UHGV virus genome: UHGV-0102749
DNA from: a virus
Reading direction: 5' to 3' (one strand)
DNA length: 18,456 nucleotides
Below are positions 5,289-18,456 of the stretch, one piece after another. A program made the position numbers and the translations under genes. Below the pieces are notes generated by a model. The model was not told the DNA's origin. It did not search any database and saw only the letters and a program-made list of their open reading frames with translations. Within the stretch, counting starts at the first letter, position 1. Every line of letters begins with the position of its first letter.

Positions 5289-7040
5289 ATGATTCAGGAC
5301 GCTTTTGTGCGCCAGCGTGCGCGGCAACTTTACTGGCAGGGTTATCCGCCCGCAGAAATATCACGTCTGATGGGAATAAACCCGAACACGATTTATGCGT
5401 GGAAAAAACGCGACCAGTGGGATGAAACGCCACCCGTGCAGCGTGTCACGCAATCCATCGATGCGCGCCTCATCCAGCTTACTGAAAAACAGAATAAAAC
5501 AGGCGGTGACTTTAAGGAAATAGACCTGCTGACCCGGCAGCTTAAAAAGCTGCATGATGGCCAGCCGGATGTGATGGCCGCAGGAAAGAAAGGCCGGGCG
5601 AAAAAACTCAAAAATCATTTCACGCCGGAACAGATTGCCGCACTGCGGGAAAAAATCATCAGCAGGCTGGAGTGGCATCAGCGAGGCTGGTTTGACTCCC
5701 TGACCCTTTGCAGGGAAGCCGGGATACGTAACAGGATGATCCTGAAATCCCGACAGATTGGGGCGACCTGGTATTTTGCGCAGGAAGCGCTGCTGATGGC
5801 GCTGCGTGACGATGTGGCGCAACCTTACCAGCGTAACCAGATTTTTTTGTCTGCGTCGCGTCGTCAGGCGTTCCAGTTTAAAAGCATTATTCAGAAGGCC
5901 GCGGCTGAAGTTGATGTGGAGCTGAAAGGGGGCGATAAAATCATCCTCTCCAACGGCGCAGAGCTGCATTTTCTCGGCACTTCTGCTGCGTCGGCACAGT
6001 CCTATACGGGCAATTTTTATTTTGATGAATTTTTCTGGGTCAGTCGCTTTGCTGAACTGCGCAAGGTGGCTGGCGCGATGGCAACCCTCAGCGGACTGCG
6101 GCGCACCTACTTCTCCACGCCATCCACCGAAACGCACGAGGCATACGCCTACTGGAACGGCGACCGCTGGAATGAGAAAAAGGCCACGCATAAACGCCAG
6201 CGTTTTTCTGTGGACTGGAAAACGCTGCATAACGGGCTTATCTGTCCTGACCGGACGTGGCGGCAAATTGTCACGCTGGAAGATGTGGTTAATCACGGCT
6301 GGAAACACACCGATATCGACGAAATTCGTGATGAAAACACCGAAGACGAGTTCCGCAATCTCTATATGTGTGAGTTTGTCCGCGAAGGGGAATCGGCATT
6401 TAACCTGAATATCCTGATTGGCTGCGGCGTTGACGGGTACGACGACTGGAAAGACTGGAAACCTTTTGCTCCCCGCCCGATGGGGAATCGTCCGGTATGG
6501 ATTGGGTATGACGCAAACGGCAGCAGCGGCAACGGCGACAGCGGCGCTGTGTCCGTGGTGGTTCCTCCGGCTGTGCCTGGTGGCCGTTTTCGAACGGTGG
6601 AGACGCGACGCGTTCAGGGGCTGGAGTTTGAAGAACAGGCCAGAGTCATTGAAGAGTTCACGTATCGCTACAACGTGGAACACATCGGCATTGATGTGAC
6701 GGGCGGGAACGGGGAGGCTGTTTATCAGATAGTGAAACGGTTTTTCCCTGCTGCTATTCCGTACACCTTCACGCTGTCATCAAAACGGTCGCTGGTACTG
6801 AAAATGCTGCAAATAATGCGTGCCGGGCGGTGGGAATACGATCGCGCCGAACGCGAGCTGGTCGCGGCCTTTAACGCCGTGCGTAAGGTGAAAACACCGG
6901 GCGGCTTTATCACTTACGAAACGGACCGTGCGAGGGGGATCAGCCACGGCGACCTTGCGTGGGCAACCATGCTTGCTGTCATTAACGAACCGATTGGCGG
7001 CGAAGGAGAAAACGAGCGTTTCACGGTTATGGAGTTCTGA
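5289..7040 (+). CDS. P: Terminase large (ATPase) subunit, P2 gpP position
   Basis: 583 aa (P2 gpP is ~590 aa as I recall); SD GGGGAG; divergent from the capsid operon and one-base-coupled to the portal gene (TGATG). Confidence 0.85.
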   Translation: MIQDAFVRQRARQLYWQGYPPAEISRLMGINPNTIYAWKKRDQWDETPPVQRVTQSIDARLIQLTEKQNKTGGDFKEIDLLTRQLKKLHDGQPDVMAAGKKGRAKKLKNHFTPEQIAALREKIISRLEWHQRGWFDSLTLCREAGIRNRMILKSRQIGATWYFAQEALLMALRDDVAQPYQRNQIFLSASRRQAFQFKSIIQKAAAEVDVELKGGDKIILSNGAELHFLGTSAASAQSYTGNFYFDEFFWVSRFAELRKVAGAMATLSGLRRTYFSTPSTETHEAYAYWNGDRWNEKKATHKRQRFSVDWKTLHNGLICPDRTWRQIVTLEDVVNHGWKHTDIDEIRDENTEDEFRNLYMCEFVREGESAFNLNILIGCGVDGYDDWKDWKPFAPRPMGNRPVWIGYDANGSSGNGDSGAVSVVVPPAVPGGRFRTVETRRVQGLEFEEQARVIEEFTYRYNVEHIGIDVTGGNGEAVYQIVKRFFPAAIPYTFTLSSKRSLVLKMLQIMRAGRWEYDRAERELVAAFNAVRKVKTPGGFITYETDRARGISHGDLAWATMLAVINEPIGGEGENERFTVMEF

Positions 7041-8086
7041 TGAGCAGAAAAAATAAAAAAGTGCGCATGAGTTCACGCATTGATCTCGCTGATGCGCTCA
7101 GGAAAGAATCATCGCTCAGTGCATTCACATTTGATGGTCCTTATCGCCTGACCGGGCATGACCTGCTGGACAATATGTACTGTGCTGATAACGGGCGGTG
7201 GTATGAAACCCCGGTAGACTGGTACGGTCTGGCAAGAGCTGCCCGGCAAACGTCCTGGCATCAGTCTGCGCTTTACTTTAAGCGCAATGTATTACTCGGT
7301 TGCTACATCCCGCACCCGCTGCTTTCCCGGCAGGATTTCTCGGCGCTGGCGCTGGACTGGTTTGTGTTCGGTAATGCATTCCTTGAGCTTCGAAGCAATA
7401 TGCTCGGCGAACCGCTTAAATTACGGCACGCCCTGGCGAAATACATGCGACGCGGAAGCGATCTTGAATCATGGTGGTATGTGCAGGATGGTAAGGACGC
7501 GTTTCAGTTTCGCCCTGGCAAAGTGTGCCACCTGATGAATCCGGATATTAACCAGGAAATCTACGGCATGCCGGAATATCTCGGCGCATTACTCTCGGCC
7601 AGCCTGTCTCATTCGGCGGACATGTTCAGAAAACTGTACTACGACAACGGATCCCACGCCGGGTGCATCATCTACATCGGTGCAGCGCAGGTAAACCGCG
7701 AAAGCATGGACTCCCTGAAAGAAACGCTACAGGGGGCACGTGGTGGTGGTGCGTTTAAAAACGTGCTCATTCATGCGCCCAACGGGGGCAAAGAGGGGGT
7801 GCAAATTTTGCCGTTCCAGCAGATCACCGCAAAAGATGAATTCATGAATGTTAAGGCGGCATCCCGTGATGATGTGCTGGCTGCGCACCGCGTTCCGCCG
7901 CAACTGATGGGGGCGATGCCGGGCGAAAAAAGTGCGTTTGGCGATGTGGAGAAGGCAGCGCGGGTTTACGCAATTAACGAGCTGATGCCCGTCATGGAGG
8001 CTATGAAGCACATCAATGGCTGGCTTGGCGAAGAGGTGATCCGTTTTAACTCTTATGCTCTTCTTGATGAAAAAACAGCCCCGTGA
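7040..8086 (+). CDS. Q: Portal protein, P2 gpQ position
   Basis: 348 aa (P2 gpQ ~344 aa); directly follows the terminase ATPase gene as in P2. Confidence 0.8.
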   Translation: MSRKNKKVRMSSRIDLADALRKESSLSAFTFDGPYRLTGHDLLDNMYCADNGRWYETPVDWYGLARAARQTSWHQSALYFKRNVLLGCYIPHPLLSRQDFSALALDWFVFGNAFLELRSNMLGEPLKLRHALAKYMRRGSDLESWWYVQDGKDAFQFRPGKVCHLMNPDINQEIYGMPEYLGALLSASLSHSADMFRKLYYDNGSHAGCIIYIGAAQVNRESMDSLKETLQGARGGGAFKNVLIHAPNGGKEGVQILPFQQITAKDEFMNVKAASRDDVLAAHRVPPQLMGAMPGEKSAFGDVEKAARVYAINELMPVMEAMKHINGWLGEEVIRFNSYALLDEKTAP

Positions 8087-9236: not shown

Positions 9237-10436
9237 ATGGCTTTTACAAAAATCAGAATCGATAATCTGTTTTGCTTTGAAAATAGCATCCTTGACTTAA
9301 GCTTCTCCAGACCCCCGATCAACAGCTCACTGGAAGGTGAGTACATTGATGGATTTGAAAAGTTCTACTTCAAAAAGGTTTGCATCGTTTCTGGTGCTAA
9401 TGCATCTGGTAAAACATCTCTTGGTCGCGTGATGCTTTCTGTGTTGCGTTTTCTCAGTAGTGGTGTTTTCAATCCAGAACCGTTAAAAATTACTGACAAA
9501 AGAAAACCTGCATATATAGAGGTTGACTTTTTCCAGAGTCATTTAAAATGTTTGTTTAGGGCAGGTGTCTGGCTTAGGGCTATGGATGAGTCTGTTGTTG
9601 TAGAAAAAATTGCAATGGCATCTGTTGATTTAAGAAGCTCGGAATCATGCGCAAAGACGACCAAAAGACTGGATGCTGTGTGGGATGCGCAAAAGTTTGA
9701 ATTAAATGGTCAAAATAGATTTTTTTCAACCGAAAACGCTAACTCAAAAGAATTTTCCCAATATTTAGAGGATTTGGACTTTGTTCTTGGTTGGCATTTC
9801 ATTCTATCTGAAAACCAAGAGAACACGGATAAAATATCACGAATTAAGAAGAATGTGCTTAATAGCATATTAAAAACCTTTGACAATACTGTTAAATCTG
9901 TCTCAGGACTCACTCTTAAAGATGATGAGGGAAAGGAGGATTTGCAGGGTTATTCAGTAGTCTTCAATAATGGAGATAGAGTTATTATTGATATGGAAGG
10001 TGATATAACAAATAAAGATAGACTGTCTCGTGGTACTTATGAGGCAGTAAAAATATCCCATCTCCTGTCAGGAGTGCTTGAAGATAAAATAGAAGAGCGA
10101 GAGTTCAATTTCCCTTGCAGTGGGGTATACTTTTTGGATGAGAAAATGGCCTTCACTCATACTGAATTAGAAAAAATGATGGTCACGCTGATTATATCTA
10201 AGCTTTGCAGATATGGTCAATTTATATACACCACACATAATTATGATATCTTGAGCTTAGATCTGCCTACGCATTCATATACTTTTACTAAAAAAGTAGA
10301 TGGTGTAACCACTTTTGTTGAAGCTACCACACATCATAAAAAGAATGATCGCAATCTTTTAAATAAAGTAAAAAATGACTGTTTTGCAACAATACCTGAC
10401 GTTTCATTAATCGAAGAGATGCTATTTGAGGATTGA
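9237..10436 (+). CDS. ABC/AAA_21-type ATPase (OLD/AbiL/PARIS-like ATPase component)
   Basis: 399 aa; SD AAAGGTGG. Walker A GANASGKTS, Walker B-like VYFLDE, H-loop-like TTHN near the C-terminus. Strongly AT-rich relative to the flanking phage genes. Confidence 0.8.
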   Translation: MAFTKIRIDNLFCFENSILDLSFSRPPINSSLEGEYIDGFEKFYFKKVCIVSGANASGKTSLGRVMLSVLRFLSSGVFNPEPLKITDKRKPAYIEVDFFQSHLKCLFRAGVWLRAMDESVVVEKIAMASVDLRSSESCAKTTKRLDAVWDAQKFELNGQNRFFSTENANSKEFSQYLEDLDFVLGWHFILSENQENTDKISRIKKNVLNSILKTFDNTVKSVSGLTLKDDEGKEDLQGYSVVFNNGDRVIIDMEGDITNKDRLSRGTYEAVKISHLLSGVLEDKIEEREFNFPCSGVYFLDEKMAFTHTELEKMMVTLIISKLCRYGQFIYTTHNYDILSLDLPTHSYTFTKKVDGVTTFVEATTHHKKNDRNLLNKVKNDCFATIPDVSLIEEMLFED

Positions 10437-10438
10437 TT

Positions 10439-10957
10439 ATGGCAGTTAAGAAATTTGCTATTATTCTTGTTGAGGGAGATACGGAAAAAGCATTGTTTCA
10501 GGATTTCAAAACATTGCTAGGCTATCCTATTAAGAAAATAGTAATTGCTAATTTATGGAATGTTAATATAAATAAATACATGCCAGCATTAACCGAAAAT
10601 AGCGAAATCATAGTGGTTTTTGATACGGATAGGATTGAGAATCTTGATAGATTTAAGAATAATCTCAATCTATTAAAGGCGAAAAAACACACAATCCACC
10701 TATTTCAACAAACAAGCAATTTTGAGGATGAGCTTGCCAATGCTTGTGGTGTAAGTAATAGAAAGTTGTATTCTTGTTTTTGCCCAAAGATCATCTCTGC
10801 AGATAACTTCAAGAATGAATTCATTGCGCTGCGCAACAGGATGATGAAATTAGATGGACTTGGACTAAATAAAACGTTGCTTTGGAGTAGAGGGATTATC
10901 CCCCAATTGAGAGATTATAATTTTCATGTTTCCTCTCATGATGATTATTTTTTATAA
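10439..10957 (+). CDS. Small RloB/DUF4435-like (Toprim-like) protein, partner of the ATPase
   Basis: ATG at 10439, 2 nt after the ATPase stop (the ORF-track start at 10433 is TTG); SD GAGGA. N-terminal AIILVEGDTEKALF resembles the conserved EGxxE block of RloB/OLD-type Toprim-like proteins, followed by an acidic VVFDTDR motif. AT-rich. Confidence 0.65.
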   Translation: MAVKKFAIILVEGDTEKALFQDFKTLLGYPIKKIVIANLWNVNINKYMPALTENSEIIVVFDTDRIENLDRFKNNLNLLKAKKHTIHLFQQTSNFEDELANACGVSNRKLYSCFCPKIISADNFKNEFIALRNRMMKLDGLGLNKTLLWSRGIIPQLRDYNFHVSSHDDYFL

Positions 10958-11087
10958 AAATAATAGTCCTCATTAAGATAAACATATTTTAAGACACAAG
11001 ACCGCCAGCTAGGCGGCCTTATATCTTTGACGTTCGACTCCTTATTTGTTGATTGTTTTCAGAACTGGAAACCTCCCGTGCAAAGTT

Positions 11088-11399
11088 CTAATCGGGAAAT
11101 AACGCCCGGATATTTCCGGCCATCTGACTGGTTATCTGTGCGGTGGGGGCTGTCTGTAACATGTGGCGTTCTGCCCTGGTTTGTGTCACTGATAACGCCT
11201 CATCGTCAGCCCATGCAGCCAGTCGGTAAGCCTCTGCCGGATTCATTTTCAGAAGTGCCAGCCCGGCCAGAAAAGCCACGCGTTGGCCGCTTTTGCGGGC
11301 TTCTGGTGTAAGGCTGTCCAGCCAGGCGCATGCTTCGCCTTCGTTCTTGACGGCGGCTGGCTTCAGATAGAAACTTATCCGTCTGGTTGGAGTCGTCAT
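11088..11399 (-). CDS. parR: ParR-like centromere-binding protein
   Basis: 103 aa from ATG 11399, 5 nt after the parM stop. RRISFYLKP…ACAWLDSLTPEARKSGQRVAFLAGLAL aligns with plasmid R1 ParR as I recall it (RRTIAFKLNP…DTLDSIPQGERSRLNRAALTAGLAL). The ORF-track start at 11534 overlaps parM and is rejected. Confidence 0.7.
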   Translation of the reverse strand: MTTPTRRISFYLKPAAVKNEGEACAWLDSLTPEARKSGQRVAFLAGLALLKMNPAEAYRLAAWADDEALSVTQTRAERHMLQTAPTAQITSQMAGNIRALFPD

Positions 11400-11403
11400 T
11401 GGT

Positions 11404-12363
11404 TTACTCCTTGTCCATTGCGTACAGCCCATTAACCAGAGCAAACTGTGGCACCCCGTCCGCGATGAAAGTCGCATTAACTCCGCAGGCTTCGCGGATA
11501 GCGGGTGCCACAATCTCCGCCCCTCCACCGACAACCATCACCCGCCCGTAACCCGAAAAACCCGCCAGCGCGCGGATCACGCGTTGTTTCAGTGTTTCTT
11601 CCTTTTCACGAATAACCGCCATCAGGCTGGCGTAATGCGCGTCATTGTGGATGTGCTGGCGCAGCCAGGCTTCATCATGGCGATGTTCGATAATGGTATT
11701 GGCGATGTGGTGACTGGTGCGCATACCGTTAGTGGCCATCACCGACAGTACGGCATCGGCCATCAGAGAAACGCCTACGTGTGGATCGCAAAACACCTGG
11801 CTGATACCTGCCAGTTGCCCCTGAACCTTTGCCACATCCAGCGTGGTTCCGCCCAAATCCACAATCAGCAGGGATTCAAACGGACTCATGTCAGCCAGTG
11901 CCTTAAAGCCTGCCGGAATGGATTCAGGCATAACCCGCACGTTACGGATAGTGAATGCCTCACCGTTCTGGTACTCCACCGGGCGCATGACGTTCGCTTT
12001 TTTGCGGTTGATGTTGGTCATATCCGGCTGTGCGTTTGTGTCGAAATACTCGCTCAGTGGCAGGGTGACAACCACATCCACCTCCTGTGGCGTGATGCCT
12101 GATTTGAGCAGCGCGTGATGAATGGCAATGACATTCACATCGCTGTACTGGTATTGCGTGTCGGTCGTCTGGACAAAGCGATCGCTGACCGGATCAAAAC
12201 CATAGCGCACGCCATCAAGCATGTAGTTCGCGGGCTGCGTGCCACCGAACGGCGCAGACCATTCCGACTTGAAGCTGTTCGGGCTGATGGCGTTGCGGCG
12301 TTCGCCGTTCTCAGTCCATGCCAGCTTGATGTTGGTGGAGCCGTCGTCGATACAAATTTTCAT
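11404..12363 (-). CDS. parM: ParM/StbA-family actin-like segregation ATPase
   Basis: 319 aa. MKICIDDGSTNIKLAW…SPNSFK…YQYSDVNVIAIHHALL…VMPESIPAG…LIVDLGGTTLD…VMVVGGGAE tracks R1 ParM block by block (phosphate-1 DDGSTN, connect/phosphate-2 DLGGTT, adenosine GGGAE); SD AAGGAA. Confidence 0.85.
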   Translation of the reverse strand: MKICIDDGSTNIKLAWTENGERRNAISPNSFKSEWSAPFGGTQPANYMLDGVRYGFDPVSDRFVQTTDTQYQYSDVNVIAIHHALLKSGITPQEVDVVVTLPLSEYFDTNAQPDMTNINRKKANVMRPVEYQNGEAFTIRNVRVMPESIPAGFKALADMSPFESLLIVDLGGTTLDVAKVQGQLAGISQVFCDPHVGVSLMADAVLSVMATNGMRTSHHIANTIIEHRHDEAWLRQHIHNDAHYASLMAVIREKEETLKQRVIRALAGFSGYGRVMVVGGGAEIVAPAIREACGVNATFIADGVPQFALVNGLYAMDKE

Positions 12364-12394
12364 GTCGCTTTTCCTTATGTTGATTAATTAATCG

Positions 12395-12503
12395 TTTACG
12401 GGATTCTGAAATCCCGTTTTTGCCTGTTTTGTGCGCGCTTCATATATCGCTGCGCGTTTTTTGCTCATTTACGGGATTCGTGAGTCCCGTTTCTGTCTGT
12501 TTT
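12395..12503. repeat. Two ~36-bp direct repeats, each with an internal dyad (ACGGGATT…AATCCCGT) and a T-run, straddling the A stop codon upstream of parM
   Basis: Copy 1 (12395..12430) TTTACGGGATTCTGAAATCCCGTTTTTGCCTGTTTT; copy 2 (12468..12503) TTTACGGGATTCGTGAGTCCCGTTTCTGTCTGTTTT. Candidate parC-like centromere/operator or tandem terminator-like hairpins. Confidence 0.5.
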
Positions 12504-15262
12504 TTGTTTCCACTGGTCAGGCCACCCCGCAGCAGGTCTGCTTTGCGGCGGGCGCGTTCAGTGGTTTCACTGATTCTCTGTGCGTGCTCTGCGTCGCGGA
12601 TGGCGCGCAGCATGTCAGAAAGCACGGTAACGGGTGTTTTCATGGTGTTCTGGTCCTGCTGAAGTGTGGATGCCAGGCGTGCGGCGGCTTCAGGGTCTGA
12701 TGCCCCCAGCTGTGCCAGATAGCTGGCGACCGGGTTATGGCGGATCTCCGTGCTGCTTACGCCGTGATTACGGCTCAGGCGCTGCCAGAGCTGCGTGATT
12801 CGGCTGTCCGGGCGGGTATCCGGTTTGCGTACAATTTCAAATCCCTGCGGTGAAATGATGCTGCCGTCAACGTACAGACTGCCGCCCCGTAACAGGTGCT
12901 GCATCTGCTGTTCACCAATATGCAGGCCGAGAGATTCAGCAGACTCCCGCCATTCTTTAGCGAGTAATTCGTGGTTATCAGGCAAAGGCCGCTGCTGTTT
13001 GCGGCTCTGTGTCCAGCTCTGCATTTCATCACTGCTGTTTTTTGCCTGTTTGTCACGCAGCGAACGCATCAGCGCCCGGCGTTCGTGCCGTTTCAGTGAG
13101 CGCATCCATTCATCCACATCAACGCCGTCAGGAAGCTGCGGCCACGGTGCTGGCCGTTCTTCCGGCTGTTCTGTCCCGTTGTTGTCCGTTTCCTGTACAC
13201 GGGGACAGTTATTGCCACGAGTCCAAGGGGCGGCAGGGCCGCCCTGAAGGTCAAAACCATTTTCGCGGGCGCTGTCTTCCGCTTCCGGTTTACGTCTTAT
13301 CAGCTTCCAGTTATCCGGATGTGTGCACACACGGGAAGACTCCCCGATGAGTGGTGACCAGATCCCGTAAATCTGTACGCTCTGTTCGCCGTAATCGTTC
13401 GGCTCATCTGCGAGGTCGTAGGCGGTGCGAATCAGGTAGTCTTTGCGTGGAACAAGTACGCCGCCCTGTTTTTCAATGTAGGAGGCAAAACACCCGGCAT
13501 CAGCGGCAGCGAGCACTGCATCCATTGCGTCATCCTTCAGCCGTTGCGGGCCTTCCGGGTTGCGTGCCATCTGGTTGGCAAGGCGGCGCAGTTCACGCCA
13601 CACCTGACGGGAGGGGATGCCAAAGAACTGGAACTGGCGGACCCGGTGAAGGCGCGCCCAGCCGATGGCGCGCTCCACGCTCTCGGCCATTGATTTTCCG
13701 GTTTCGTGGTCAACGCGTGGCTTGCCCGTTTTCGGGTCGATACCATCCACGGCGCGGCTGTCCAGGTTCTTTCCGATGTAGGTGGCGATGTAGCTGGTTG
13801 GCGTGCCTTTTGAGCCGTCGACATACTCCACCTTAAAGCGCGGAGTAATATCATTGCCCAGCTCGTGGCGGTCTTCCTGAATGGCAATATCGCGGGTATG
13901 GGACACAATGGTGTCGATTTCTTCCGGATGTGCAAAGACCATCATATGCCAGTGCACGGTGCCGTCATGATGAGGCTCCACCGTGCGGATGCCATACCAG
14001 CGCAGGCCGTCGCGGTTCAGTTTTTTGCGGACCGCCGCAAAAAACGTGTTAACCAGGTAATCGCTGGAGTCGCGCATTGTGGCCCCGTTCCATTTGGGAT
14101 TTGGATGACCGTTCTCCGTTGTGGCGTGGTATTTTGACGGGCAGGTGACAGTCAGAAACACCGCTTTGTCGCCACGGGCTTCGGCCAGAAGTTCCAGCCC
14201 CTTCATGGTGGCCATCATTTCTGCCTTACGGTGAACCGGGTTACTTACTCCCGCGTAATACACCGTCTCGAGATCAATCGTGAACCCGTCTTCATTTTCC
14301 AGCATGAAACTTTTCAGGAAATCGCGTGTTTTCTCGCGCTGTGCGCGAAACTCGCTTAACGCGTCCTGGCTCAGATAGGGTGATGTTTTTCTGGAAACCA
14401 GACAGGCGGCGCGGAGTTGTTCTTCCCGCCACTCGCAACGTAACAGCCACAGTTTGCGTTTCCACCATTCCGCACAGGTCAGGCGAAGGATTGCGCCCGG
14501 CAGCAGCTCCGTGTCCGGTTCGTTCCTCCGGTCTTTGTCTGTTGTCAGAGCGTCATAATGTGGAGGCATGGCGTGCAGGTGTAACGCCATGCGGGCCAGC
14601 ATCTGATACGCCTTCAGCGTTACATCCATGGTCAGCTCGCCATCGGTCGCGCCAAAGCCATCGCAGAGTTTTTCAAAAGTGCCACTGAACATCGCCGCCG
14701 TCATGGTGGCCAGCGTCTGTATCTGGTGTTTGTTGAGCTGCGGCAGGTAAAGCAAATCGTCCAGGCGTTCGCGTCCGGCAAGGGAGCGATAACCCGGTGT
14801 CAGCCAGCGGTGATCGGTGCGCTCCAGACGTTCGAATATTTTGCGCAGGGTCCCACGCGCATAGCGTTCTGCCTGCCTGGCGTTTTTTCCTTTCTGACGA
14901 TCGGCTTCCTGTTTTTTGCGCAGGAAGGAGAGGTGGCGAATAAGCGGATCGCGCAGATAGGACGGCAGCAGGCGCAGCGAGGCCATGGCTTCATCCACCG
15001 CGCCGCGTGCCTGTTTTCTGGCGTCTCCTGCCAGTGTGATGGTTTTGTCCTGTTTTTCCTGTGCGTCCAGGCTTTTATTAATCAGGTTGCCCAGCGGCGT
15101 GGCGGAGAACGCCGCATCAGCCATTTCCTGGCGGCGCTCGTTCTCTGCCCGGTAGGCATCCAGCCAGGAGGAAAGCGCGGATTCAGGAGCGGGGATCCCC
15201 GTTCCTTCACGCCCCACTGCGTGGCGCGGTTGTTGCCAGTCCCTGATGTACTCTGCCGTCAT
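12440..15262 (-). CDS. A: Rolling-circle replication initiator, P2 gpA-like (HUH endonuclease)
   Basis: 940 aa. HUH motif VHWHMMVF and paired catalytic tyrosines in SYIATYIGKNLD (YxxxY), as in P2 A. Last gene of the leftward early operon. Confidence 0.8.
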   Translation of the reverse strand: MTAEYIRDWQQPRHAVGREGTGIPAPESALSSWLDAYRAENERRQEMADAAFSATPLGNLINKSLDAQEKQDKTITLAGDARKQARGAVDEAMASLRLLPSYLRDPLIRHLSFLRKKQEADRQKGKNARQAERYARGTLRKIFERLERTDHRWLTPGYRSLAGRERLDDLLYLPQLNKHQIQTLATMTAAMFSGTFEKLCDGFGATDGELTMDVTLKAYQMLARMALHLHAMPPHYDALTTDKDRRNEPDTELLPGAILRLTCAEWWKRKLWLLRCEWREEQLRAACLVSRKTSPYLSQDALSEFRAQREKTRDFLKSFMLENEDGFTIDLETVYYAGVSNPVHRKAEMMATMKGLELLAEARGDKAVFLTVTCPSKYHATTENGHPNPKWNGATMRDSSDYLVNTFFAAVRKKLNRDGLRWYGIRTVEPHHDGTVHWHMMVFAHPEEIDTIVSHTRDIAIQEDRHELGNDITPRFKVEYVDGSKGTPTSYIATYIGKNLDSRAVDGIDPKTGKPRVDHETGKSMAESVERAIGWARLHRVRQFQFFGIPSRQVWRELRRLANQMARNPEGPQRLKDDAMDAVLAAADAGCFASYIEKQGGVLVPRKDYLIRTAYDLADEPNDYGEQSVQIYGIWSPLIGESSRVCTHPDNWKLIRRKPEAEDSARENGFDLQGGPAAPWTRGNNCPRVQETDNNGTEQPEERPAPWPQLPDGVDVDEWMRSLKRHERRALMRSLRDKQAKNSSDEMQSWTQSRKQQRPLPDNHELLAKEWRESAESLGLHIGEQQMQHLLRGGSLYVDGSIISPQGFEIVRKPDTRPDSRITQLWQRLSRNHGVSSTEIRHNPVASYLAQLGASDPEAAARLASTLQQDQNTMKTPVTVLSDMLRAIRDAEHAQRISETTERARRKADLLRGGLTSGNKKQTETGLTNPVNEQKTRSDI

Positions 15263-17314: not shown

Positions 17315-17593
17315 TTATTTTGTCATCTGCACGTATTTCTCTGCGTTTCTGATGGTTTTCAGGAAAATTGCGAAGAGATTTACTGTACGTTTTGAGTTTT
17401 TTTCTTCTTGGTTGATGGGAAGGGCTGCTCTGTCAGCCTGCCTTTTCACTGCATTAACAGTTTGATTGGTACGCTTCGCGTAATCTTTCAGGCTTTCTTC
17501 GAGTACCGGTAATCCATGCTCATCGCGGTATGGGTAGAACGCCGCCAAACGCTCAAAATCCGCTTGCTCGTATGTGTTCAAGAGCTTTGTCAT
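17315..17593 (-). CDS. cox: Cox/Apl-like excisionase-repressor (first gene of early operon)
   Basis: 92 aa, divergent from the C repressor. DYAKRTNQTVNAVKRQADRAALPI parallels the P2 Cox helix-turn-helix (FAKLIGKSTGAVRRMIDKGKLPV, recalled). Position matches P2 cox. Confidence 0.55.
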   Translation of the reverse strand: MTKLLNTYEQADFERLAAFYPYRDEHGLPVLEESLKDYAKRTNQTVNAVKRQADRAALPINQEEKNSKRTVNLFAIFLKTIRNAEKYVQMTK

Positions 17594-17684
17594 GATGTGA
17601 TAACCTGTTCAGTCTGTGGTTATTTGTTGCTAAAAGTCGTCTCTAGGCGACTTTTAGGGTTAATTTAGTCGTCTGGAGACCACC
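17594..17684. promoter_or_regulatory. Lysis-lysogeny switch region (face-to-face Pe/Pc promoters and operators)
   Basis: 91-bp region between the divergent cox-like and C genes. Perfect dyad AAAAGTCG-N8-CGACTTTT (17632..17655) and direct repeat AGTCGTCT at 17635 and 17667 (32 bp apart). Confidence 0.5.
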
Positions 17685-17996
17685 ATGTCAAGTGGGTACG
17701 AAAAAAAACTGAAAGAGATACGGAAAAGTGAAGGGTTAACTCAAGCTGAGTTTGCAGATGTTACTGGGATAAATCTCGGAACTATAAAGAATTATGAGAG
17801 CGGTAAAAGAGAGGTTGGTTTAAGCGTTGTTGATCGCGTAATTAATTCTAAGGATTTCGAAAAATACACTATATGGCTTATGACGGGAAAAACAAATGAG
17901 GCTGCTGGGCAGATCAGTCCCTCTCTCTCCCCTGATGGGCCAGAAAACACATCGTCTTCTCAAAAATCCCGCAAGACTGGTACACAGCCCGGCTAA
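17685..17996 (+). CDS. C: Immunity repressor, P2 C-like (HTH)
   Basis: 103 aa. LTQAEFADVTGINLGTIKNYESGKR is a typical HTH, and KYTIWLMTGKTNEAAGQISPSL parallels P2 C (KYTLWFMTNQIAPESGQIAPAL, recalled). Located immediately upstream of int as in P2. Confidence 0.75.
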   Translation: MSSGYEKKLKEIRKSEGLTQAEFADVTGINLGTIKNYESGKREVGLSVVDRVINSKDFEKYTIWLMTGKTNEAAGQISPSLSPDGPENTSSSQKSRKTGTQPG

Positions 17997-18045: not shown

Positions 18046-18456
18046 ATGAGCATAAAATCAATTCCGGGAGGGTATCTTCTTGACATGCGCCCTGAGGGGC
18101 GTAAAGGCAAACGCATTCGCAAAAAATTTAAAACGAAATCGGATGCAGTTTTATATGAGCGGTGGGTGCTGGCGCAACAGCATAACAATGAGTGGAAAGG
18201 AAACTCCATTGATCGCCGTCCGCTGTCGGTGCTTATTGACTTGTGGTGGAAATACCACGGCCAGCTAATGAAGTCAGGGCATAACACGCGCCTTAAATTG
18301 CTGCGCTTGAGTGAGGCAATGGATGACCCGTGTGTGCATAAACTTAATACAACGATGCTCACCGAGCTACGTGTGTCCAGGATAGAGCAGGGGATACAGC
18401 CCATAAGCGCTAACTTAAGGGTTGAACCATCTGAAGAATGCGACGCCTCGGTGCCT
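18046..18456 (+). CDS. int: Tyrosine integrase, P2 Int-like (N-terminal part; continues past window end)
   Basis: Translation from ATG 18046 (MSIKSIPGGYLLDMRPEGRKGKRIRKKFKTKSDAVLYERWVLAQQHNNEW…) matches the P2 Int N-terminus (MAIKKLDDGRYEVDIRPTGRNGKRIRRKFDKKSEAVAFEK…); open to the window end. Absent from the ORF track because it is truncated. Confidence 0.8.
   Translation, partial: MSIKSIPGGYLLDMRPEGRKGKRIRKKFKTKSDAVLYERWVLAQQHNNEWKGNSIDRRPLSVLIDLWWKYHGQLMKSGHNTRLKLLRLSEAMDDPCVHKLNTTMLTELRVSRIEQGIQPISANLRVEPSEECDASVP

Follow-up and report, generated by a model that had tools for sequence, protein, structure and literature searches.

This work deals with a pair of partition genes, parM and parR, located at positions 11,088 to 12,363 of an 18,456-nucleotide stretch of the virus genome UHGV-0102749 (the window, by which the whole of that stretch is meant). 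Type II partition systems are textbook plasmid machinery, and it is near certain, as far as the identity of the parts can be read from their sequences, that the window carries an intact type II (ParM/ParR) cassette inside a P2-family prophage. The gene parM (11404..12363, minus strand) encodes an actin-like segregation ATPase of 319 amino acids (aa), which matches the Pfam family StbA_N (3e-82), the ParM C-terminal domain (1.3e-68) and PHROG 691, 'partition protein' (2.8e-90). Its alignment with the ParM of plasmid R1 (PDB 1mwk) spans residues 2-316 (E 3.4e-93, about 50% identity), and the phosphate-binding and adenosine motifs IDDGSTNIKL, MPESIPAG, LIVDLGGTTLD and VVGGGAE are kept. A preliminary description of this DNA had recognised ParM and ParR as R1-like by motifs and family, an assignment with which Pfam, PDB and PHROGs agree, and the coordinates that it gave for the two genes proved exact. 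It had also considered that the cassette might be truncated or its proteins might fit a non-partition family better. Neither applies, since the 319-aa protein aligns with R1 ParM in full length with its motifs kept, and matches to sugar kinases or other non-partition actin-fold families reached only E 5e-4 or weaker, below the Pfam gathering cut-offs. With the NCBIfam models, ParM had sub-threshold matches only (NF010498, at 18.5 bits where the cut-off is 417), and ParR and the neighbouring replication protein A had no match.

The gene parR (11088..11399, minus strand), which starts 4 nucleotides (nt) after the parM stop codon, encodes a predicted centromere-binding adaptor of 103 aa, with matches to Pfam PF10784, Plasmid_stab_B (2.4e-24), and PHROG 2515, also 'partition protein' (1.7e-57). 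As a single sequence ParR found no match in the PDB, and only with a profile built from five ParRs was the ParR of plasmid pB171 (PDB 2jd3) matched, over its full length (E 3e-12), its C-terminus being aligned with the conserved C-terminal tip of ParR. The ribbon-helix-helix-like block proposed earlier for the N-terminus agrees with the PF10784 match and with this full-length profile match, and the protein consists of a predicted ribbon-helix-helix-type domain (aa 1-65), a variable linker and a conserved tip, NIRALFPD. In sequence terms, parMR is an ordinary, intact ParMR system; its P2-family setting is unusual but already catalogued.

In fact, a 1.6-kilobase (kb) region containing the cassette is 97.7% identical at the DNA level to Escherichia phage P88 (NC_026014; Xuanwuvirus, Peduoviridae), whose annotation names gp17 'plasmid segregation protein ParM' and gp18 'partition protein'. 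At the protein level, ParM is 99.4% identical to gp17, ParR 91% identical to its P88 counterpart and A 97.3% identical to gp16. The element belongs to Xuanwuvirus, with A, ParM, the portal protein and the large terminase, TerL, being 97-99% identical and the gene order being that of NC_026014. P88 and the Xuanwuvirus phages phiSM, P88_4B11, 520873 and Chuche have the parMR genes in the same position as the window, from which they differ only allelically: the window's ParR linker is a singleton, and the integrase allele and the cargo of the neighbouring slot differ. The region was found, under the same RefSeq annotation, in 1325 of 5426 complete E. coli genomes (about 24%). A tblastn search of ParM against 50,697 phage records returned only 14 P88-like records and the phage-plasmid D6 (48% identity), which upholds the earlier statement that P2 itself has no such system. 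A ParM 98% identical to that of E. coli was also met under a Firmicute genus, on a 226-kb contig of 'Vagococcus sp. WN89Y' (NZ_JBQPOM010000071.1), which is most likely an enterobacterial contaminant of that assembly. The phiSM homologue has been given as a 'fitness' gene (Magaziner et al., PMC6456863), and P88 has been listed among candidate phage-plasmids, with both episomal and integrative states proposed (Pfeifer et al. 2021, PMC7969092). Neither the cassette nor the episome hypothesis is, thus, new, both being already on record, and no functional study of a P88-type parMR was found in the literature. The new points are the deep synteny together with a single ParM clade, the purifying selection, the placement in the operon, a two-palindrome candidate parC and genome-scale evidence on integration.

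As regards the placement, parM lies directly downstream of gene A (12440..15262, minus strand), which encodes a rolling-circle replication endonuclease of 940 aa (Phage_GPA, 2.6e-130), and is transcribed in the same direction. The two genes stand, as described before, between A and the cargo of the tin/old slot, here an AbiL-like gene pair. Beyond A come small early genes and, at the position of cox, an open reading frame (ORF; 17315..17593) without family match, upstream of which a Pe-like early promoter can be recognised (17662..17691, minus strand; TTGACA-18-TAAATT, 10 of 12 consensus matches). No sigma-70-like promoter was found between A and parM by a consensus scan, which is crude and gives a weak result, and a scan from the early promoter to a hairpin after parR revealed no convincing sense-strand terminator. 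This GC-rich hairpin (11002..11016), with T-rich sequence on both sides, is situated between the convergent parR and AbiL-like genes and is likely to be the end of the early operon. Because there is neither a recognisable promoter between A and parM nor a sense-strand terminator before that hairpin, it appears that the early operon ends with parM and parR, co-transcribed with A, from which it would follow that ParM and ParR are made while the phage genome is extrachromosomal and replicating.

Upstream of parM there are two 42-nt direct repeats, 81% identical and 73 base pairs (bp) apart from start to start, both of which contain a palindrome with 8-bp arms, ACGGGATT-N4-AATCCCGT. The proximal repeat (12392..12433, minus strand) has its palindrome at 12398-12417, with the promoter-proximal edge 35 nt upstream of the parM start, while the distal one (12465..12506, minus strand; palindrome 12471-12490) lies inside the last 22 or so codons of gene A, the stop codon of A falling between the two copies. 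The repeats that the preliminary description had placed at 12395..12503 are, therefore, real. Where it overlaps the distal palindrome, the 3' end of gene A is under a double constraint, from its coding function and from the putative ParR site. The palindrome occurs only at these two sites in the window and likewise in a complete 34-kb relative (chance expectation about 0.13), and its GGGA/TCCC cores are almost invariant in 88 P88-like sequences, in which the 4-nt spacers and the outer arm positions vary. These palindromes are considered here as a candidate parC. They were also examined as terminators of A transcription, a role that was rejected, as they are terminator-like only on the plus (antisense) strand and there is no U-tract on the sense strand. 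Among more distant relatives, Plesiomonas has two 26-nt repeats, 72 bp apart, which likewise straddle the A stop codon. In Serratia and Enterobacter, inverted arms of 14-20 nt, separated by 26-28 nt, lie upstream of parM, and Hafnia has one similar palindrome upstream of parM. Such differing layouts would fit a fast-evolving ParR/parC pair, although they are not proof of it.

These relatives were reached by a protein search followed by contig look-up, since a contig scan with the single ParM recovered three near-identical loci only. P2-like prophages of Hafnia, Plesiomonas, Serratia and Enterobacter encode ParMs of 54-63% identity downstream of gene A. In Plesiomonas and Serratia parM is the next gene after A, in Hafnia and Enterobacter one or two small ORFs intervene, and in all four genera parM is followed by parR, variable cargo and the portal gene. 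The comparison with other P2-like genomes that had been called for, thus, locates the cassette in P88-like phages and in the P2-like prophages of four other genera, and not in P2. In a neighbour-joining tree of 107 ParMs, calculated without support values, the gene-A-linked ParMs and that of the window form one clade, separate from the sampled plasmid ParMs and those found on integrative conjugative elements (ICEs); the sampled ParMs of 49-53% identity were found in plasmid or ICE contexts, with Rep3, ParAB or Tra genes. Across the same P2-like prophages, identity is 30-46% for the portal protein, 36-43% for the large terminase and 29-55% for A, so that ParM is the best conserved of the proteins compared. 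Since ParM is better conserved than portal and terminase, selection clearly maintains the cassette. Within the P88 group, moreover, the ratio of non-synonymous to synonymous substitution rates (dN/dS) is 0.02-0.10 for parM and 0.22-0.58 for parR, parM being under strong purifying selection, and an intact ParM of 319 aa is present in all 89 related loci (ParR having 103 or 104 aa in 85 of them). The existence of one ParM clade with shared synteny across deeply diverged P2-like prophages argues that the cassette is not recent cargo.

The changes in parR are confined to the linker, the DNA-binding N-terminus and the C-terminal tip being kept. Nearly all of the 89 alleles share the same first 17 residues, the predicted beta-strand RRISFYL among them, and the helical part falls into two allele classes (about 52% identity overall), which occur with nearly identical ParM and identical upstream palindromes. 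In the 89 loci there are more than 40 alleles of the hypervariable linker, which is about 25 residues long; that of the window (TRAERHMLQTAPTAQ) is found once. At the tip, NI[QR]x[LF]FP is conserved, and N-[IA]-x-x-[LF]-F-P holds across five genera and 85 alleles. This pattern of variation is the one expected if, in ParR, a disordered tether joins a DNA-binding domain to a ParM-binding peptide.

The resting state of the element could be assessed at genome scale. Of the 1479 places where the cassette occurs in the 5426 complete E. coli genomes, 1477 are chromosomal. When an 800-nt probe across the attP junction of the circular record NZ_CP148288.1 was used, an intact attP of the integrase type tested was present in none of 442 genomes, every match being broken at the core. 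Stable plasmid lysogeny is, therefore, not the normal state. The sole phage-sized circular record found, NZ_CP148288.1 in PLSDB, is a complete P88-like genome of 34,461 bp with integrase and intact attP, and represents either the assembly of an excised circle or a true episome. The other plasmid-database matches are replicons of 227 kb to 1.4 Mb with an inserted prophage and a fragmentary 26.8-kb linear Shigella record. The element combines virion genes (P2-type capsid, terminase and portal) with plasmid maintenance genes (ParMR) as phage-plasmids do, and replication by phage protein A has been counted as plasmid-like (Pfeifer et al. 2021, PMC7969092), but the genome data do not reveal lysogens that keep it extrachromosomal. 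As to the earlier suggestion that it might persist as an episome, a transient or rare episomal state may exist, while a stable one finds no support in these counts.

Taking these results together, we consider it on balance somewhat probable that the cassette is a working ParMRC module, a conserved part of the early operon, which would serve the distribution or retention of transient rolling-circle phage circles. Because the genes ride the early operon behind A and the resting state is integrated, their job would be on the transient circle and not in the resting prophage. Upon infection or derepression, the early promoter would transcribe the genes from cox through A to parM and parR, and protein A would start rolling-circle replication, giving monomeric circles. 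ParR dimers would then bind, on each circle, the two palindromes straddling the end of gene A, and the ends of ParM-ATP filaments would be captured by the conserved C-terminal tip of ParR, after which insertional polymerisation of ParM would drive sister circles apart. The benefit would probably consist in the distribution or retention of circles in dividing cells, from infection to integration and from excision to re-integration or lysis; in stable lysogeny the phage would be integrated and the cassette probably silent. A broader claim, by which ParMRC would be a core module, ancestral and under selection, of a deep Enterobacterales P2-family clade, and would provide it with a short, actively partitioned plasmid phase, is put forward tentatively and with less than even confidence.

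Several points weigh against this proposal. A single non-replicating circle cannot be partitioned, and any benefit for lysogenisation would need at least a few rounds of replication first. The absence of a promoter before parM was deduced from a simple consensus scan, so that a weak ParR-regulated promoter is possible, which would mean expression in lysogens. A ParR-autoregulated promoter within the candidate parC was not detectable by the same crude kind of scan, and this lowers the claim of an R1-like regulation, not that of a partition mechanism. The candidate parC comprises two palindromes (four half-sites) as against the ten iterons of R1, which makes the formation of a ParR scaffold questionable. 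Furthermore, the repeats could act as RNA, given that in the predicted fold of the sense transcript (12364..12520, minus strand) the palindromes pair with each other and do not form two local hairpins (minimum free energy -35.2 kcal/mol, z -4.66), the parM Shine-Dalgarno sequence being left unpaired; a search of Rfam gave nothing relevant. Finally, in the ICE precedent, srpMRC, effects were modest, of about 2-4 fold (PMC4489591).

The main rival is a lytic role of the 'replication efficiency' kind, in which ParM filaments and ParR would position or spread the circles for efficient replication and packaging, and not for segregation into daughter cells. P2 packages monomeric circles, which implies many separate circles per cell. 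The position of the cassette in the early operon, immediately after gene A and in its orientation, and a conservation stronger than that of the core virion proteins would suit this role, and the AlpAC system of the prophage CGP3 offers a precedent (PMC4446434). Nevertheless, P2 and 186, like the majority of the other P2-like phages, need no ParM for efficient replication, and the ParM of the window is close (about 50% identity) to genuine plasmid-segregating ParMs, while AlpC is a distant actin-like protein, for which reasons we hold this role to be rather unlikely. A true dual-lifestyle phage-plasmid, with stable low-copy plasmid lysogeny through A-dependent replication and ParMRC and with integration as the alternative, would accord with the classing of P88 and the episomal and integrative states suggested for it (PMC7969092), with the circular NZ_CP148288.1 and its intact attP junction, with a Plesiomonas relative on a phage-sized contig of 32 kb, and with the P2-like KS14, a proven plasmid prophage, though by means of RepB and ParA. 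It is, however, improbable in view of the chromosomal location in 1477 of 1479 places and the lack of an intact attP in all 442 genomes, the remaining plasmid-database matches being large replicons with an inserted prophage. Besides, by analogy with P2, the immunity repressor would shut off the early operon, A included, so that replication under repression is not expected, and the lone circular record could be explained by spontaneous induction, as in another E. coli prophage (PMC5454188).

A function in lysogens directed at other DNA, for example the exclusion of plasmids or co-resident phages or partition incompatibility with them, or else an action upon the chromosomal locus of the prophage, appears to be very doubtful. 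The two ParR allele classes and the hypervariable linker could reflect a diversification of specificity, and the cassette adjoins defence genes, but no promoter is predicted upstream of parM, PADLOC returned nothing for ParM or ParR, and ParR shows no detectable match to the ParR of the phage-plasmid D6. Moreover, there is essentially no variation in the 17 N-terminal residues of ParR, with the predicted DNA-reading beta-strand, or in the palindrome cores, so that DNA specificity would not be diversifying. Least probable of all, and already largely refuted, is that a plasmid par cassette was recently captured as passive cargo, without any role for the phage, into the variable region, a possibility that the preliminary description had left standing and which the results disfavour. 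The nearness of the tin/old defence hotspot, the homologues of about 50% identity on plasmids and ICEs, and the mere 'fitness' label of the phiSM homologue (PMC6456863) would speak for it. Against these stand the position of the cassette in the early operon and not in the variable slot, a single syntenic clade in constant position among phages that share no more than 30-46% identity in portal and terminase, the low dN/dS of parM (0.02-0.10) with ParM intact in 89 of 89 loci, and the constancy of parMR while the neighbouring slot varies among relatives.

As for the remainder of the window, it represents a segment of a P2-type genome in reversed orientation, with capsid and terminase genes followed by the portal gene Q (7040..8086). 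The tin/old defence hotspot of P2, between cos/portal and parR, is filled by the AbiL-like two-gene pair (9237..10957), made up of an AbiLi-type AAA ATPase (9237..10436, plus strand; 399 aa; PADLOC 1.1e-27) and an AbiLii/OLD-TOPRIM protein (10433..10957, plus strand; 174 aa), and relatives carry other cargo in the same slot (HicAB, a KAP NTPase or hypothetical genes). The Phage_GPA domain of protein A is confined to aa 179-503, and its N-terminal extension of 178 aa and C-terminal one of about 435 aa are without family match. At the other end, a C-type repressor gene (17685..17996) is separated from the cox-position ORF by a perfect inverted repeat with a 12-bp stem (17630..17657; CTAAAAGTCGTC-TCTA-GGCGACTTTTAG), which lies about 5 nt from the Pe-like promoter and is probably the operator of the immunity switch. 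The window closes with the N-terminus of an integrase (18046..18456, plus strand; first 137 codons), 42% identical to P88 Int; its best PHROG profile has 144 positions, and the match ends near residue 128. The element had been called integrase-bearing, which is correct for the N-terminal part, the gene then running off the end of the window.

On the broader claim put forward above, that of an ancestral core module, the rolling-circle products of protein A would be driven into the two daughter cells ahead of integration or following excision, which would make these phages the counterpart of the SXT/R391 ICEs, and a facultative plasmid state might be possible in hosts without attB. If the cassette does segregate transient circles, integrating phages would have, like ICEs, an actively maintained plasmid-like phase, with a bearing on lysogenisation efficiency, on prophage stability and on the boundary between prophages and phage-plasmids. 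In this context, P88 is inducible and can be engineered, and offers a widespread, tractable system in which to ask whether integrating phages make use of active partition.

The element can be compared with several known systems. Among phage-plasmids, D6, of the D6/P1 group, has a ParM 48% identical to that of the window, and KS14 demonstrates that P2-type virion modules are compatible with a plasmid lifestyle, with RepB and ParA and without gene A. Both the D6/P1 group and KS14 are, nevertheless, extrachromosomal and possess plasmid replication genes, whereas the element in the window encodes an integrase and occurs in the integrated state in practically every genome. The ParMRC system of R1 (stbAB of NR1) and par1 of pB171 resemble the cassette in the ParM motifs, in the ParR family and in the order repeats-parM-parR, but their replicon is a theta-replicating low-copy plasmid and not an integrating rolling-circle phage. 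The parC of R1, moreover, consists of ten 11-bp iterons flanking a promoter, in contrast to the two 20-bp palindromes, 73 bp apart and one of them in a coding region, which make up the candidate centromere of the window.

A further system is AlpAC of the Corynebacterium glutamicum prophage CGP3, an actin-like protein and its adaptor which are expressed early and are needed for efficient replication of the phage DNA (Donovan et al. 2015, PMC4446434). The likeness lies in an integrated prophage with an actin-like filament former and a DNA-binding adaptor, encoded by early genes, which act on the excised circle. AlpC, however, is a distant actin-like protein of an actinobacterial element, and the AlpAC phenotype concerns replication efficiency and not segregation. 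In the SXT/R391 ICEs, the excised form, which replicates by rolling circle, is stabilised by srpMRC, a system with a small centromere of four repeats that is switched on only by induction (Carraro et al. 2015, PMC4489591). This system shares with the window a type II module, a resting element which is integrated, and an excised circle replicated by a rolling-circle (HUH-type) initiator. To the R1 proteins SrpM and SrpR bear only a distant relationship, while the ParM of the window is a close relative of R1 ParM. The element of srpMRC is conjugative and its function has been shown experimentally, whereas that of the window is a phage, for which the equivalent function is inferred.

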